Part shown: in pieces, positions 24,114 through 55,490 of the stretch
How positions within the stretch are numbered: position 1 is the stretch's first letter
Layout: every line of letters starts with the position of its first letter
Source: Escherichia phage vB_EcoM_P54
DNA: 64,000 nucleotides
Direction: 5' to 3' (one strand)
Sequence record: PV390658.1
The notes under the pieces: model-generated
Database searches by the model: none
What the model was told of the DNA's origin: nothing
The model's input: only the letters and a program-made list of their open reading frames with translations
Position numbers and translations under genes: made by a program

Positions 24114-24374
24114 ATGAAAATTGAGCACTGCTATGAGTCTGATGGAACACCTATACGTTGTCCACATTGTGGGTGTACAGACTTGCAAGGTGAAGTTCAT
24201 GTGATTGTTAATGGTCATATAGCTGAAGAAAGTACTACATGTGTTGGTTGTGGTGAGCATCTATCATTCTGGGCTTACGGTTCATACCAACCTACACCGC
24301 ACTTAATCTACCATAGCAATAAAGCTGTGAAGAGTGTTATCAACTGGTTCATTAAGAAAGGATTTACAAAATGA
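24114..24374 (+). CDS. small zinc-ribbon protein (86 aa)
   Basis: CPHCGC ... CVGCGEH Cys pairs. Confidence 0.4.
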   Translation: MKIEHCYESDGTPIRCPHCGCTDLQGEVHVIVNGHIAEESTTCVGCGEHLSFWAYGSYQPTPHLIYHSNKAVKSVINWFIKKGFTK

Positions 24375-24916
24375 TTAAATTAATCTTTGCAAGTGGTGAA
24401 AATGGTGAGTTTGGTACTCCAACTGGTATGCCGTGGCCTCGACATAAACAGGACATGCAAGAGTTTAAGAGACTCACTAAAAATAACTTAGTAGTTATGG
24501 GTAATGAGACTTTTAAGACTCTGGGAAGTAAGCCTTTACCAGAACGTGCAAACCTCATCTTAACAAACTCTGTACCATATTTAGGCATAGATTTTGGCAA
24601 AGATGATGTAATGTATGCTAAGGCCAACAAAGAATCCTTTGGAGCATTTTTGAAGTATCTTGATAGTTCTATTGATGAAGATGTCTTTGTAATTGGTGGT
24701 GCAGGTGTTCTTGTCGATGCTTTGCCGTATGCTGATGTAGTTTTCCATACAGTTTTCCATAAAGTTACTGAAGAGGCCACTGTGTATTTACCTTTTGAAA
24801 ACTTCTTCGATAAACTGTATGATAACCGTGTATTTGCAAAGGTGCAGTCAAGACCCTCAGATGATGGTAAAGCAACCTTTGAAATCTATGTTCCACAAGT
24901 AAAAGGACACTTTTGA
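24371..24916 (+). CDS. frd: dihydrofolate reductase
   Basis: 181 aa; LIFASGENGEFGTPTGMPWP resembles the DHFR N-terminal signature; immediately upstream of thymidylate synthase as in T4 frd-td. Confidence 0.7.
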   Translation: MIKLIFASGENGEFGTPTGMPWPRHKQDMQEFKRLTKNNLVVMGNETFKTLGSKPLPERANLILTNSVPYLGIDFGKDDVMYAKANKESFGAFLKYLDSSIDEDVFVIGGAGVLVDALPYADVVFHTVFHKVTEEATVYLPFENFFDKLYDNRVFAKVQSRPSDDGKATFEIYVPQVKGHF

Positions 24917-24917
24917 T

Positions 24918-25817
24918 ATGTCACAAGCTGATTTGAGTTACAAAAATATCCTGAACCATGTTTTATCCGTTGGTGAACTGCGTACTACACGAACTGGAGA
25001 TGTTATCTCTGCATTTGCTCCACCACAGTTTCGTTTTGATATGAGAACTGGTTTCCCACTCTTAACATCTAAACAGGTGTTTACAAGGCAAGTTATTGGG
25101 GAAGCTTTATGGTTCATGAATGGTGAGAACAGGCTTGGTGAACTCCGTTATCGCACTTGGGGTGAAAATGATGGAGAACGCTGGACTATCTGGTCAGATG
25201 ATTTTAAACGCTGGTTAAGCTCTAACTATTCTTCTGAACAAGATTGGTTAGAAGATGCAGGCGGAAGAATCTATGGAGTTCAGTGGAGAAACTTTGAAGG
25301 TCATAATGGTTGTGTTGTAGACCAGTTAGAAACCTTAGTAACGAAGATGAAGGGTGATATTACAGACCGCTACATGCTTGTTAATGCTTGGAATGCAGCA
25401 GATATTGCAGCTAACTCAATGGCTTTAGCACCTTGTCATGTTCTGTTTCAGGTTTATATCACTAATGAGGGTGAAGTTGACTTGCAATGGTATCAGCGTT
25501 CTGTAGACACCTTTTTAGGACTTCCGTTTAACATTGCATCTTATGGTTTTATTCTGGAAGTTCTTTGTAAGATGACTGGATACACTCCACGGTACTTGAT
25601 AGGTGTCTTTGGAGATACTCAGATTTATCAGAACCATATGAAGCAGGTTTATGAACTGATGAACAATGAAGAGTTTCATGCACCGACTTTTGAGATTGGT
25701 GTCCCACTTAACACTTTAAGTGACTTAAAACATCTCACTGCAAGTGATTTTATCGGTGGTATTAATAATTACCAACATGCAGGAAAGATTGAAGCACCTT
25801 TGTCAGTAGGTAAATAA
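24918..25817 (+). CDS. td: thymidylate synthase
   Basis: 299 aa; active-site region MALAPCHVLFQ (ThyA PCH motif), RTGFPLLTSK. Confidence 0.85.
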   Translation: MSQADLSYKNILNHVLSVGELRTTRTGDVISAFAPPQFRFDMRTGFPLLTSKQVFTRQVIGEALWFMNGENRLGELRYRTWGENDGERWTIWSDDFKRWLSSNYSSEQDWLEDAGGRIYGVQWRNFEGHNGCVVDQLETLVTKMKGDITDRYMLVNAWNAADIAANSMALAPCHVLFQVYITNEGEVDLQWYQRSVDTFLGLPFNIASYGFILEVLCKMTGYTPRYLIGVFGDTQIYQNHMKQVYELMNNEEFHAPTFEIGVPLNTLSDLKHLTASDFIGGINNYQHAGKIEAPLSVGK

Positions 25818-25853: not shown

Positions 25854-26225
25854 TTACTTTTCAGTATTCTTTGTGTTCTTTTCAGTAATAGCTTGGAGGG
25901 CTGATACTGATTGAGCCAGATTGTTCACACTATCAGAGAATTTATCAAGAGTCTTAGTAAGTTTTGCGTTCTCACCCTTAACATTCTCTAACTGGACTTT
26001 CTGGTTCTCCATCCCTAGCTGAAGCAGCCTCATATCAGACTGTAAATCACGAATAGCTGAATAATTACTTTTGGAATAATTATCTAACTGCTGTAACTTT
26101 GTTGTGATAGACACTTCTTGCTTACCATCCGAGACTTGCATGGTGGTATACATCCCAATAACACTAAAAATACCAACTACAATTGCACCAATATTATTTT
26201 TAAAAGCTTCCTCTAGCCACTTCAT
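25854..26225 (-). CDS. membrane-anchored coiled-coil protein (123 aa), hypothetical
   Basis: N-terminal TM helix IGAIVVGIFSVIGMY followed by heptad-rich sequence; function unknown. Confidence 0.4.
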   Translation of the reverse strand: MKWLEEAFKNNIGAIVVGIFSVIGMYTTMQVSDGKQEVSITTKLQQLDNYSKSNYSAIRDLQSDMRLLQLGMENQKVQLENVKGENAKLTKTLDKFSDSVNNLAQSVSALQAITEKNTKNTEK

Positions 26226-26419
26226 TTATTCTCCCCCTTAAAAGCTTTTTCTAAGTTATCTACGAACTCATCATCAATAGGTGTGTCTGTTTTACTCGCA
26301 AGGTATCTTGCAAGCCTAAAGAACACTTTCTCAATCATGTATTCACTTAGAAGGGATAAAATGAGTTTCCAGAAGAAGCTACCTAGATTTTTTAGAAGAA
26401 TTGCTAGGATTGTAGGCAT
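26222..26419 (-). CDS. small membrane protein (65 aa), hypothetical
   Basis: Hydrophobic N-terminus ILAILLKNLGSFFWKLILSLL. Confidence 0.35.
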   Translation of the reverse strand: MPTILAILLKNLGSFFWKLILSLLSEYMIEKVFFRLARYLASKTDTPIDDEFVDNLEKAFKGENK

Positions 26420-26497: not shown

Positions 26498-28885
26498 TTA
26501 AGCAGTTCTTACCCAAGCCATTAACTTATAGAACTGGTTAGTAACACTAAATGCTGAACCAGAACCTGTACTACCAGTGTTACCACTAACTGTGTGGCTG
26601 TGAGCACCAATACCTACAGAGTGGGAATGGTCACCAGCACCGCTTGTAGTACCAGACCATGTGTGTGTATGGTTACCAGTTGTGTTAGTGTTAGGGAACT
26701 TGTTATCTCTTCTATCAAGCCAGTCAAGCGTTCTAGGGAGGCTGTTACCAACTGTTGTATATCCGTACAAAGCATCACCACCATTAACCAATAGCAGACC
26801 TAAGTGGTGAGCGTGGTTACCAGCAGCACTTGTTGTACCACTTACAGAGTGAGTATGACCACCAGTACTATTAGTGCCCTTCGTACCATAATCAAAAGAT
26901 GAAGTGGTAGCAGAGAAACTGTGAGTGTGTGATGGTAAGTTACCAACAGCTAACGTCACAGAATCTGAACCACCTGTTGTAGCAACATCTGAACCGTTTG
27001 CTGCTGCGATTCTGATAGTTCTACCAACACCATTGTTCAGGTACGTCCAAGTTAGACCAGGAAGTGCTGTATTAGGGTCAACATTACTGTTAAACCACGT
27101 TACAATACCTACTGGATAGATTTTATTAAGGTCTGTAGAGTCACTAATTGCTGTTGCAATTTTCTGGTCAGTTTCTGCTTTAGTGTATGCACCAATCTCT
27201 GAAGGGGTTGGTCTCTGAGCTTCGGTGTAAACCTTAGACCATACATCCTCAAAACCAAGTGCATCTCTGGCTGTTCTGTACCACATCCCACCATTTTTGT
27301 ACCTAAACTTTAATTGTGCAGATGGTGTAGAGGCTTTCGTATTACAAAACAGGTTTAAGACTAAGAGTTCTGCCCCACCATCACTTGTTGATTCAGTGTA
27401 GATTCCTGAAGGTTGGTTCCAAGCTACACCACCTTCAGTCTCTTTTACCAGACCTCTGGATGCTGACCAGAAATACTTCGAATCAGTTTCTGATTTACCG
27501 TAGTATCTTGCATCAATGTTAGCCCAATCAGAGGGTTGAACTTGACCATTGATTTTCACTGTTTTATTTAGAAAAAAGTCATCTTGCATAAAAATAGTGG
27601 TCCCAGCTTTATCATTGTGGATAATGAGTTTAGATGGGTTTTCTACCTCGCCATTCCCGATGTACCATCTTCTCACATTATCAGCGTTATAACCAGCAAA
27701 GTATAGTGCATTATCCTGAACAGTGTTTCTTAGCTGTAACGATAGGTCATCTTGGAGAATAACTTGTGTAGACCTGAAAATGTTCATGTCACTGAGTTTA
27801 GCAAGATTACTCAAAGTAGCTGCTGGAATGTATCTAGAGTCAATGTTAGTCCAATCAGAAGGTTGAACTTGACCAGTGATTCTCACAGTCTTAGTAGCAC
27901 TAATCACATCTGACAAAGAGATGGTTGTGCTTGTGCTGTAGTTGTGCAGATTAACTACAGAGTCAGAAGTATCAGTCCCTAAGTAGAATTTGCTTGTACC
28001 ATCAGCCTTCACTCCAAGTAGGTATAGTCCGGTTGCATTAGAGGCATTCTTAATAACTAACGCAGCATTATTTCTGGTAATTTTGAACTCACCTACAAAA
28101 TTATTAATACCACTAAAGGTGTTATCACCAGCTAGCTGTGCAAATCTCTGATTAGCTACTGTCTGAGTAAAGTATCTAGCATCTAAGTTAGAGAAGTCAG
28201 AAGGTTGAACTTGACCCATGACTCTTAGTGTCTTGTTAAATGACGCTGTTGCGTCAAGGGTTAACATTGAGCCAGTGGCATGATTGTACAGATAAACATT
28301 AGTGTTGTTTGCATTTCCCTGTCCAACATACCACGTTTGCTGGTTATTAGCATCTCTACCCTGAATATATGAAGCTCCTGCATTCGTTGCTTTCTTAAGG
28401 GTTAACTGCTCACCATCAGTTACAATTGCTTGCCTAATGTTGAAGTTATTTGTTACAGCCAGCCTTGCATATCTTGCATCATTCTCTTCATTAGTTCTCA
28501 TCCCAAGTTCATTAGGGCTTGGTTTATTCAGAGTATGATAAACAGTTGCCGACCTTGAAGCATCTGCAATAGTCAGTTTAAGGCCATTTGCGTTGATTTT
28601 AAAAGTCTTTAAAACATCCCCAATAGTAACCTCAGAAGAGCCTGTTGGGTTAAAGACTACCTTACCACCATAAAGTAACTTAACAATCCCTAAATCACCC
28701 GTCATGGTACTACCAGCAATCTGAACAAACCTTTCAAGTTTAAAAGATGCTAAGAAGTCTTGATAGGTCATTCGACGGTCTTCATCACCCAGCATTTCAG
28801 GTCTCTTTTTAACTCTGACATGAAGAAGGTCATCTGAACGGATTGTGTCGATTGAGTTTAATTCACTCAACTTGTAATCTGCCAT
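26498..28885 (-). CDS. tail fiber protein with internal repeats and His-rich HxH C-terminal domain
   Basis: 795 aa; GQVQPSD(F/W)(S/T/A)N(L/I)D(A/S)RY repeated three times; C-terminus [32 protein letters not shown] resembles T4 gp37/gp12 metal-binding HxH boxes (from memory). Confidence 0.7.
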
Positions 28886-28931
28886 TATAAATTTTCCTCT
28901 TAAAAGGGGCTATAAAGCCCCTGTAAAGAAA

Positions 28932-30119
28932 TTAAGCTGTTCTCTGCCATACATACAGTACGAAGGATGGCTGTTCAATGTTGAAAGCTTGTCCACCACC
29001 AACACTGTTCGTGTTTCCACTATGCGTATGCTCAGAAGAAGAAACTGTCACAGTACCATTGTGCGTATGTGAACCAATACCAACTGTGTGACTGTGAGCA
29101 CCAATACCCACCGTATGGTTGTGGTTACCAGTTGTATTAGTGGTAACGCTAAAAGAGTGGGTGTGTGCACCAGCGACTTCACAGACAACATCTGCTGAGT
29201 ACCATGATTGGTCATTCCTTGAAGACCAGACCATTGCAGGTCTTTCCGATAGACCACCACCCGATTCATAGGTCAATCTGTGGTTGTGAGCACCAGCAGC
29301 ACTTGTTGACCCACTACCAACGTGATTGTGGTTACCAGTTGTGTTAGTAGTCTTTGTTCCATAGTCAAAAGAGTTGGTAGTCTTAGTCCCATAATCAAAA
29401 GCTGAAATTGAAACAGTTGCATTATGAGTATGACCACCACCACTAAGAGATACAGAGTGTGAGTGTTGAGGCATGTTATTAACTGACAAAGTGACAGTTG
29501 AAGCACCAAATACAGAACCTGCTGGCCTTGTATCAGAGTCATAACCAACCAACGCCCTACCTTTTGAAACTAACTCCCAAGTACCTCCACAAATTAAGTA
29601 TGTAGAAGGGTTTGCAGAGTTCATAGAAAGATGGATAGTACCTACTGGATAAGAAGCCTGAACAGCCTTGTACAAGTTATTTACTGCTCTTGCTGTAGCA
29701 TACTTATCTGCATCTTCATTATAAAGGTTAGATGTTGTCCAGTTCTGAACATTACTTAAACCAACCTGTGCCTTAGTTGTATTGTGTGGGTTACTCTTGT
29801 CCTTGATATGTTGCTGGACAAGGTTATTAACCTCTTCTGAAGACATAATCTGTAGATTTGCTCTTGCCTCAGCTACATTAACAATATCTGATAAGTTATT
29901 TGCAGCAACTAACTGAAGAGCATTAATAACATTATCTAAACCAATTTGTGTTTTAGTAACACCATGAGGGTTATTTTTTAGGCTTGCGTGTGGAGCAAGT
30001 AATTGCTCAAGAGTACACCTCTTATCCTCAATACCCTGCTTAAGATGGAAGATATCACTAAGGTCAATTGGTAAGGCTGCTTGAGGCAAGGCACTAATTT
30101 GAATTTCACCTACTGCCAT
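28932..30119 (-). CDS. tail fiber / receptor-binding protein with HxH-rich C-terminus
   Basis: 395 aa; duplicated SAFDYGTKTTN/SFDYGTKTTN; repeated TTGNHNH ... [16 protein letters not shown]. Confidence 0.65.
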   Translation of the reverse strand: MAVGEIQISALPQAALPIDLSDIFHLKQGIEDKRCTLEQLLAPHASLKNNPHGVTKTQIGLDNVINALQLVAANNLSDIVNVAEARANLQIMSSEEVNNLVQQHIKDKSNPHNTTKAQVGLSNVQNWTTSNLYNEDADKYATARAVNNLYKAVQASYPVGTIHLSMNSANPSTYLICGGTWELVSKGRALVGYDSDTRPAGSVFGASTVTLSVNNMPQHSHSVSLSGGGHTHNATVSISAFDYGTKTTNSFDYGTKTTNTTGNHNHVGSGSTSAAGAHNHRLTYESGGGLSERPAMVWSSRNDQSWYSADVVCEVAGAHTHSFSVTTNTTGNHNHTVGIGAHSHTVGIGSHTHNGTVTVSSSEHTHSGNTNSVGGGQAFNIEQPSFVLYVWQRTA

Positions 30120-30121
30120 TA

Positions 30122-38137
<8,016 letters not shown>

Positions 38138-54909: not shown

Positions 54910-54997
54910 TGGTGTGCCGTGTAGGAGTCGAACCTACCGAGTCTCAATGACAAGGGATTTACAGTCCCCACCGCTACCATCTACGGGATAACGACAC
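54910..54997 (-). tRNA. tRNA-Tyr (anticodon GUA), long variable arm
   Basis: 88 nt; anticodon stem GGGA/TCCC with loop CTGTAAA; long extra arm; T-arm GTAGGTTCGACTCCTAC; CCA encoded. Confidence 0.7.
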
Positions 54998-55006
54998 ATT
55001 TAAATT

Positions 55007-55083
55007 TGGCGGTTAGTCAGGGATTCGAACCCTGTGCCATTCGCTTAACAGGCGACCGCACATACCTTATGTGCTTCCTAACC
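55007..55083 (-). tRNA. tRNA-Asn (anticodon GUU)
   Basis: T-arm CAGGGTTCGAATCCCTG, D-stem GCAC/GTGC, anticodon loop CTGTTAA, CCA encoded. Confidence 0.7.
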
Positions 55084-55160
55084 TTAATACATTGCCAGAC
55101 CGTGTTTTTTCTTTTATCCGCAAAAAGTATTTTGTTGCTGAATACGGTCTTCTGCAAAAT

Positions 55161-55237
55161 TGGAGGCGGGTGCAGGAGTCGAACCTGCCGATACCATGCT
55201 AATGAGACATGTGAGACGCCCTTTCTCTATACCCGCA
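55161..55237 (-). tRNA. tRNA with anticodon CAU (second copy; Met, initiator or Ile-lysidine type)
   Basis: T-arm GCAGGTTCGACTCCTGC, anticodon stem CATGT/GCATG with loop CTCATTA, CCA encoded. Confidence 0.6.
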
Positions 55238-55328
55238 ATTCTTAATGACCAGACCAAATCTCTTCTTTGTCCGATTTACCTTCAGATGTATAAGATTAAG
55301 TTTGCTGTAATTGGTCTTCTGTCAAAAC

Positions 55329-55406
55329 TGGCGTTCCAGAAGGGATTTGAACCCTCAGATATCCACTTTGAAAGAGTGGTGACTATACCATTTTGTCTAC
55401 TGGAAC
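55329..55406 (-). tRNA. tRNA-Glu (anticodon UUC)
   Basis: Acceptor GTTCCAG/CTGGAAC, T-loop TTCAAAT, anticodon stem CCACT/AGTGG with loop CTTTCAA, CCA encoded. Confidence 0.75.
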
Positions 55407-55413
55407 ATTAATT

Positions 55414-55490
55414 TGGTCTCTGTTGGAGGACTTGAACCTCCGGCCTTACCGCCCCAAACGGAACGCTCTACCAAGCTGAGCTAAACAGAG
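55414..55490 (-). tRNA. tRNA-Pro (anticodon UGG)
   Basis: Acceptor CTCTGTT/AACAGAG, canonical D-arm GCTC-AGCTTGGTA-GAGC, T-arm GGAGGTTCAAGTCCTCC, anticodon loop TTTGGGG, CCA encoded. Confidence 0.75.

Follow-up and report, generated by a model that had tools for sequence, protein, structure and literature searches.

Two tail fibers of the Felix O1-like Escherichia phage vB_EcoM_P54 carry tips homologous to the T4 gp37 needle, and the long fiber is a mosaic allele

We analyzed a 64,000-nucleotide (nt) stretch of DNA from Escherichia phage vB_EcoM_P54 (PV390658.1; hereafter the window), in which two adjoining open reading frames (ORFs) on the minus strand, 26498..28885 (795 amino acids, aa) and 28932..30119 (395 aa), lie exactly where an initial annotation had placed two tail-fiber genes. 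Very probably these encode the two receptor-binding fibers of a Felix O1-like phage, with tips of the T4 gp37 type and heads that are exchanged as modules. In homology searches their His-rich regions prove to be true homologs of the part of T4 gp37 that binds iron. For the most part the finding confirms annotation, and the architecture has already been published for the genus; what is new here is the mosaic long-fiber allele.

Sequence comparison places the phage in Felixounavirus (Felix O1-like myoviruses). The 5-kb fiber region matched ~280 phage records at 90-96% nt identity, piecewise, and nearly all of these records are of Felix O1-like coliphages and of Salmonella or Shigella phages. The window also agrees gene for gene with Escherichia phage JohannRWettstein (Bas63), down to identical gene lengths, in the order wedge 2 (489 aa), wedge 1 (285 aa), a 100-aa platform protein, the 395-aa fiber, the 795-aa fiber and two small ORFs, beyond which thymidylate synthase and dihydrofolate reductase are encoded on the opposite strand (the thyA-frd block). 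Given this shared order, the baseplate genes upstream of both fiber genes and the matches to PHROG tail-fiber families (E = 0 for the 795-aa protein and 1e-137 for the 395-aa protein), the original call of two tail-fiber proteins holds. We refer to the two as the long and the short fiber. For the short fiber a 99% match exists in public data.

The two fibers stand apart in their content of His-x-His (HxH) motifs. Six are found in the long fiber (aa 653, 677, 691 (HAHH), 739, 753 and 762), all inside aa 653-764, with five other His in the remaining 680 residues, and nine in the short fiber (aa 219, 230, 264, 278, 319, 333, 342, 351 and 364; span aa 219-366). Composition-preserving shuffling, repeated 20,000 times, gave as many motifs as observed once for the long fiber and never for the short one, and among the other ORFs of the window that are 100 aa or longer, none exceeds two HxH motifs. 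All sequence strings quoted in the initial annotation are present in the two ORFs, and the likeness that it drew to the His boxes of T4 gp37 is borne out. The crystal structure of the T4 gp37 tip (2XGF) was matched by short-fiber aa 146-367 (phmmer E = 5e-26; family profile 1.7e-27) and by long-fiber aa 646-775 (phmmer E = 4e-19; family profile 1.9e-21), and the HxH motifs fall column for column on those of T4. The outward strand of T4 gp37 has its HxH motifs at 883, 915 and 929, and the return strand has four more, at 966, 980, 989 and 998. Short-fiber aa 219, 264, 278 and 319, 333, 342, 351 align with all seven of these sites, and the two HxH motifs beyond T4's are distributed one per strand (aa 230 and aa 364); long-fiber aa 653, 677, 691 and 739, 753, 762 align with six of the seven. 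Both alignments are collinear with 2XGF, with a His-free hypervariable segment at the position of the head, and the C-terminal ends of the fibers (...WVRTA and ...WQRTA) align with T4 ...VRLA, the end that returns to the collar in T4.

Conservation among relatives distinguishes the His boxes from the segment that they enclose. Across 49 cluster representatives of the short fiber, the tip His are 76-100% conserved and aa 281-320, which separate the fourth HxH from the fifth, are ~30% identical to the window. Across 120 relatives of the long fiber, conservation is 97-100% for the twelve His of the HxH motifs, and aa 691-738 form one of the variable blocks. Conserved His on either side of a variable segment suggest that the His boxes are a conserved scaffold and that the His-free head is presumably the receptor-contacting part.

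In the architecture we propose, each fiber would be a homotrimer anchored to the baseplate through its N-terminus. A T4-gp37-type tip would be made by the C-terminal 210-250 residues: a collar leads into the outward strand of a thin six-stranded beta-needle, at whose far end the chain would fold into a small head before running back along the needle into the collar. The HxH motifs would face the three-fold axis, where three chains would contribute six imidazoles to one octahedrally bound metal ion (iron in T4), for a predicted total per trimer of up to nine ions in the short fiber and six in the long fiber. Such ions would serve as internal rivets holding the needle together rather than as receptor contacts, and receptor specificity would reside in the His-free hypervariable head (short-fiber aa 281-318, long-fiber aa 695-738). 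The initial annotation had the fibers ending in HxH motifs, which is correct for the sequence and not for the predicted object: because the chain doubles back, as homology to 2XGF and the Bas63 structure indicate, the His boxes would belong to the shaft. Metal binding, the identity of the metal, the trimeric needle fold and the out-and-back topology are all predicted here for both fibers from homology and from the published work on Bas63; which fiber binds which receptor we likewise infer. The receptor-binding determinants of the phage would thereby be placed at two short head segments, with the His boxes as scaffold.

Several observations weigh against this architecture. AlphaFold2 monomer models built with family alignments reached a mean predicted local distance difference test score (pLDDT) of 60.4 for the short fiber and 43.3 for the long fiber, the needle not being confident, and a Foldseek search of the short-fiber model against the PDB returned weak matches to the gp10 C-terminal domain (E = 0.28). 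An intertwined trimer cannot be modeled as a monomer, so we set the AlphaFold2 models aside; with low-confidence models and an uninformative Foldseek search, trimer fold and metal binding rest on homology and the published Bas63 work. The long fiber has no equivalent of T4 His998. Our relatives were chosen by similarity to the query, those of the long fiber being its best matches, clustered at 90%, so that the conservation figures and the type frequencies given below are biased. Finally, T4 gp37 depends on two chaperones, gp38 and gp57A (PMC6957217), and tblastn searches of the window and of the entire Bas63 genome with gp38 (from T4 and the T4-like phage SHBML-50-1) and gp57A (from T4) gave nothing better than E = 0.5, although tblastn can miss chaperones that are short coiled coils. 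Among 25 gp38/Tfa matches, sampled across a total of 348, there was likewise no ~87-kb record. With no detectable gp38 or gp57A homolog, assembly must differ from that of T4 in some respect, and dependence on gp38 and gp57A belongs to the biology of T4 and not to the fold.

A different view of the His boxes is that they bind a metal other than iron (e.g. zinc), or no metal at all, and are kept mainly as DNA homology patches for recombination. We consider this unlikely. Sequence alone cannot identify a metal, and zinc occupies an HxH site in the gp12 crystal (PMC6116203); however, the T4 gp37 needle, which is the direct homolog, has seven irons along its length, with H929/H931 as iron ligands essential for function (PMC6957217), and iron is the usual ion at the HxH sites of phage fibers and spikes (PMC6957217, PMC6116203). 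As for homology patches, the right breakpoint of a cassette shared between phage families, described below, does lie within the His boxes, but the His are kept at the amino-acid level where the surrounding sequence has diverged, which argues for selection on the protein and not on DNA alone.

The initial annotation had further likened the tips to T4 gp12, and this part did not stand: T4 gp12 in the PDB was absent from the short-fiber matches both with the single sequence (E<=0.01) and with the family profile (E<=1). T4 gp12 does have an HxH metal site and a collar fold in common with gp10, gp11 and gp37 (PMC6957217, PMC6116203), and its crystal shows zinc at this single site, possibly as a refolding artifact, the native metal being unclear (PMC6116203). 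That the 395-aa protein is a short tail fiber of the gp12 type, homologous to gp12 and performing irreversible binding to the lipopolysaccharide core, is in our estimation very improbable. It is short, attached to the baseplate and has the collar fold of gp10, gp11 and gp12, and the Bas63 authors suggest that the short fiber may act functionally like the T4 short fibers; yet no gp12 chain appears where the gp37 tip scores 1.7e-27, and its nine HxH motifs are arranged as an out-and-back needle whereas gp12 has one site. The sole link of the short fiber to gp12 is the collar fold in common with gp10 (Pfam Gp10_C).

Returning to two fibers with gp37-type tips, the long fiber is where the modular part of our reading is seen. 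By sequence, its shaft comprises three detectable repeat modules, each of ~100-110 aa, and a knob domain, and its Pfam domains follow the order PF20744 (three times), PF12604, Gp10_C and Phage_fiber, as in Bas63 gp27. The best full-length match to the long fiber among 5.8 billion proteins is 84%, and every segment of it has a 96-100% match in some relative. Module 2, for instance, has a median identity to relatives of 0.35, yet is at least 95% identical in three of them. Pairwise identities per module are bimodal (30-40% or 80-100%), and the modules fall into 8-18 discrete types each, which occur in 72 combinations among 121 proteins, that of the window being unique. Many pairs of module types pass the four-gamete test (all four combinations seen), and the junction segments are conserved (aa 226-255, 336-360 and 446-465). 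The modules thus assort independently among relatives, a pattern expected from recombination at conserved junctions, and recombination at conserved motifs would be the mechanism of exchange. The GQVQPSD..N.D.RY junctions, the FDYGTK units of the needle and the His boxes are structural elements that may at the same time act as homology patches, at which recombination would exchange modules as well as heads among phages, also from Felixounavirus to T4-like phages or the reverse.

An exchange of the latter kind is suggested by the long-fiber head. Codon-wise identity to gp37 of SHBML-50-1 is 0.89-0.96 across aa 664-753 and 0.3-0.45 on both flanks, and the right breakpoint of this cassette lies inside the His boxes. 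A 53-aa query from the long-fiber head found 100% aa identity in SHBML-50-1, AV122 and BYEP01 (~167-169 kb) as well as in ~30 Felixounavirus records. From these matches we conclude that a receptor-binding cassette is common to Ounavirinae and Straboviridae, and finding this identical head in T4-like phages points to a common receptor. A megablast of the short-fiber tip gave no match outside Felixounavirus, and the head type of the short fiber is confined to Felixounavirus records.

The Bas63 study described the variability of the shaft as "unexpected" and ascribed it to mutation tolerance, host recognition or defense escape, recombination not being among the three (PMC12609058). We tentatively propose that the fibers evolve as discrete cassettes (four shaft/knob modules plus the head) swapped at short junction motifs, which would explain the shaft variability, and that the same head cassette functions in two phage families, one needing gp38 and one without detectable gp38/gp57A; we regard this as possible, at somewhat less than even chances. 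Occurrence of the same head cassette with and without detectable gp38/gp57A points to either a chaperone-free gp37-type tip or an unrecognized chaperone. If the tip truly needs neither gp38 nor gp57A for folding, it would offer a simpler chassis for making gp37-type receptor-binding proteins. As mapped cassette boundaries, the FDYGTK unit, the His boxes and the GQVQPSD...RY junctions are also natural splice points for the engineering of Felix O1-like host range, a practical value that we take to be modest.

The internal repeats named in the initial annotation are present. The motif GQVQPSD[FW]xN[IL]DxRY occurs at long-fiber aa 224, 338 and 447, where it forms the conserved ends of the ~100-110-aa repeats, and PF20744 matches the long fiber three times (E = 1.5e-52). 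The tandem SFDYGTKTTN duplication lies at short-fiber aa 240-259, where Tandem Repeats Finder reports 2.0 copies of a 30-nt unit with 86% matches. Their age and place are another matter: the idea that they are recent duplications now remodeling the receptor-binding region is largely refuted, and we give it hardly any credence. The repeats are real and the number of FDYGTK-type units varies, from 0 to 4 among 72 short-fiber relatives and from 1 to 3 across the long fiber, the short fiber, Bas63 gp26 and SHBML-50-1 gp37. Against a recent origin, the three long-fiber modules are merely 33-36% identical to one another in aa and 51-56% in nt, a 66-nt stretch at the module ends alone being conserved (77-82%), and all three are already present in 106 of the 120 relatives. 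The two tandem copies share 25 of 30 nt (5 differences), two units are the commonest state (39/72), and T4 gp37 has a diverged two-copy form of the tandem, SHBML-50-1 gp37 having a three-unit form. Neither repeat lies inside the hypervariable head. On these comparisons the internal duplications are old structural repeats of shaft and needle, genus-wide and ancient, and what remains of the proposed modular evolution is cassette exchange at conserved junctions, not recent internal duplication.

A hidden Markov model (HMM) of the three long-fiber modules found no further copies in the long fiber, the short fiber, T4 gp37 or the C-terminus of T4 gp34. The Bas63 structure counts five beta-helix repeat domains in its long fiber (PMC12609058), so the two extra domains reported there are not detectable by sequence. 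In the short-fiber shaft we also observed a repeat, NPHxxTKxQ(I/V)GLxNV, that occurs twice, at aa 50-64 and 110-124 (29928-29978 and 29748-29798), 60 aa apart and with ~71% nt identity. Short-fiber shaft aa 69-144 matched a solved chain described as "short tail fiber gp92" (9ZD7; profile E = 3e-14).

The features of the locus are collected in Table 1; the roles given there for the 100-aa platform protein and for long-fiber aa 1-135 are taken from the Bas63 structure work (PMC12609058).

Table 1. Features of the two fiber genes and the adjacent platform gene, in window coordinates
Feature	Coordinates	Strand	Residues	Basis and remarks
Long-fiber platform	30122..30424	-	100 aa	Bas63 gp25 ortholog; synteny with Bas63; PHROG 4141
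Short tail fiber gene	28932..30119	-	395 aa	Bas63 gp26 ortholog; PHROG 2097, E 1e-137; 75% identity
Short-fiber collar domain	29466..29684	-	aa 146-218	Gp10_C, E 1.3e-18; PDB matches: gp10 C-terminal domain, 2XGF collar
Short-fiber outward needle strand	29280..29465	-	aa 219-280	HxH 219, 230, 264, 278; His 76-100% conserved
Tandem 10-aa repeat AFDYGTKTTN/SFDYGTKTTN	29343..29402	-	aa 240-259	Short fiber; Tandem Repeats Finder
Short-fiber head, predicted receptor-contacting tip	29166..29279	-	aa 281-318	Identity to relatives ~0.3 vs 0.7-0.98 elsewhere
Short-fiber return needle strand	29022..29165	-	aa 319-366	HxH 319, 333, 342, 351, 364; His 96-100% conserved
Long tail fiber gene	26498..28885	-	795 aa	Bas63 gp27 ortholog; PHROG 4277 tail fiber, E = 0; 69% identity; same gene order
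Long-fiber N-terminal baseplate-binding and proximal region	28481..28885	-	aa 1-135	97-100% conserved among 120 relatives
Long-fiber shaft module 1	28172..28471	-	aa 139-238	PF20744; module HMM, E 1.8e-44; 8 allelic types
Long-fiber shaft module 2	27830..28144	-	aa 248-352	PF20744 and module HMM; 11 types
Long-fiber shaft module 3	27503..27805	-	aa 361-461	PF20744 and module HMM; 8 types
Long-fiber knob	27134..27457	-	aa 477-584	PF12604 (gp37_C), E 1e-14; Mu S, PDB 8JU3, E 8e-20; 18 types
Long-fiber collar domain	26930..27133	-	aa 585-652	Aligns to T4 gp37 collar; weak Gp10_C; 97-100% conserved
Long-fiber outward needle strand	26804..26929	-	aa 653-694	HxH 653, 677, 691, corresponding to T4 His883/885, 915/917, 929/931; one FDYGTK unit
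Long-fiber head, predicted receptor-contacting tip	26672..26803	-	aa 695-738	His-free; aligned to T4 head
Long-fiber return needle strand	26594..26671	-	aa 739-764	HxH 739, 753, 762, corresponding to T4 His966, 980, 989
Cassette common with Tequatrovirus gp37	26601..26896	-	~aa 664-762	Long fiber; megablast 91.2% nt identity to SHBML-50-1 gp37

The two small ORFs that follow the fibers are both on the minus strand. One, directly downstream of the long fiber (26222-26419), encodes 65 aa with a hydrophobic N-terminus, and the other (25854-26225) encodes 123 aa, in which a long stretch of helical or coiled-coil-like character comes after a hydrophobic segment. One of the two is annotated as a holin in some records; our searches gave neither of them an informative family match or an identifiable chaperone signature. 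The dihydrofolate reductase and thymidylate synthase genes (24371-25817, plus strand) converge on the fiber operon, a layout also found in Bas63, and the GC skew changes sign near 26 kb. Elsewhere in the window, 24 tRNA genes are clustered at 49839-55490 on the minus strand, tRNA-His(GTG) among them, as is typical of Felix O1-like genomes.

Of the known systems, the closest are the fibers of other felixounaviruses (Bas63 gp26/gp27, Felix O1 gp76/gp77 and VpaE1 gp74/gp75), whose genes follow the wedge and platform genes downstream in the same order. That Felix O1-type fiber C-termini are homologous to T4 gp37 had been pointed out in 2010 and 2015 (PMC3185647, PMC4690856), and a 2025 study of Bas63 by cryo-electron microscopy and AlphaFold 3 described gp26 and gp27 with gp37-like collar-needle-head tips and HxH motifs, seven in the short fiber and six plus an extra His in the long fiber (PMC12609058). 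A PhageMaP preprint on Bas63 has nothing on fiber function. The window fibers are 75% (gp26) and 69% (gp27) identical to those of Bas63, with the same Pfam domain order, and differ from them in several ways. The window short fiber has nine HxH motifs as opposed to the seven of Bas63 gp26, which is without the two distal outward motifs equivalent to T4 His915 and His929; nine is the majority state of the short fiber in the genus (51/72). The heads differ from the Bas63 heads, and the long fiber is a new combination of module types.

Likeness to the T4 gp37 tip comprises collar and needle homology, HxH motifs at the seven iron sites, a head between the strands and the C-terminal ...V(R/Q)(L/T)A. 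The window tips would, however, sit on single-protein fibers attached directly to the baseplate, whereas the T4 fiber is built of four proteins (gp34, gp35, gp36 and gp37), and the T4 shaft has no match to PF20744 or PF12604, unlike the window long fiber. The head is also found in the gp37 proteins of T4-like SHBML-50-1, AV122 and BYEP01, in which head and adjoining needle (~aa 664-753) are 97-100% identical in aa and ~91% in nt. The SHBML-50-1-type gp37 differs in that the DNA outside the cassette is unrelated, the needle is longer (3+5 HxH plus one additional FDYGTK unit) and gp38 is encoded.

More distant are the P2 gpV-type spikes and R-pyocin fibers, which follow the same principle of three HxH motifs on a three-fold axis around one octahedral iron (PMC6116203), though as single sites in unrelated folds and not as a multi-site needle. 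The window also encodes a spike-tip protein of 207 aa (33172-33795, minus strand) with an HTH at aa 188-190, the position of H188/H190 at the puncturing apex of Bas63, an HxH that has been proposed to bind iron (PMC12609058); by analogy, this HTH would give the tail a third HxH metal site. Two other fibers are related to the long fiber through single domains. Phage Mu fiber protein S (PDB 8JU3; Pfam gp37_C) was matched by the knob at aa 477-580 (E = 8e-20), and T7 gp17's C-terminal region (PDB 4A0T) by aa 158-226 of module 1 (profile E = 1.5e-5). Mu S and T7 gp17 thus have isolated domains in common with the long fiber of the window, the fibers being otherwise different.

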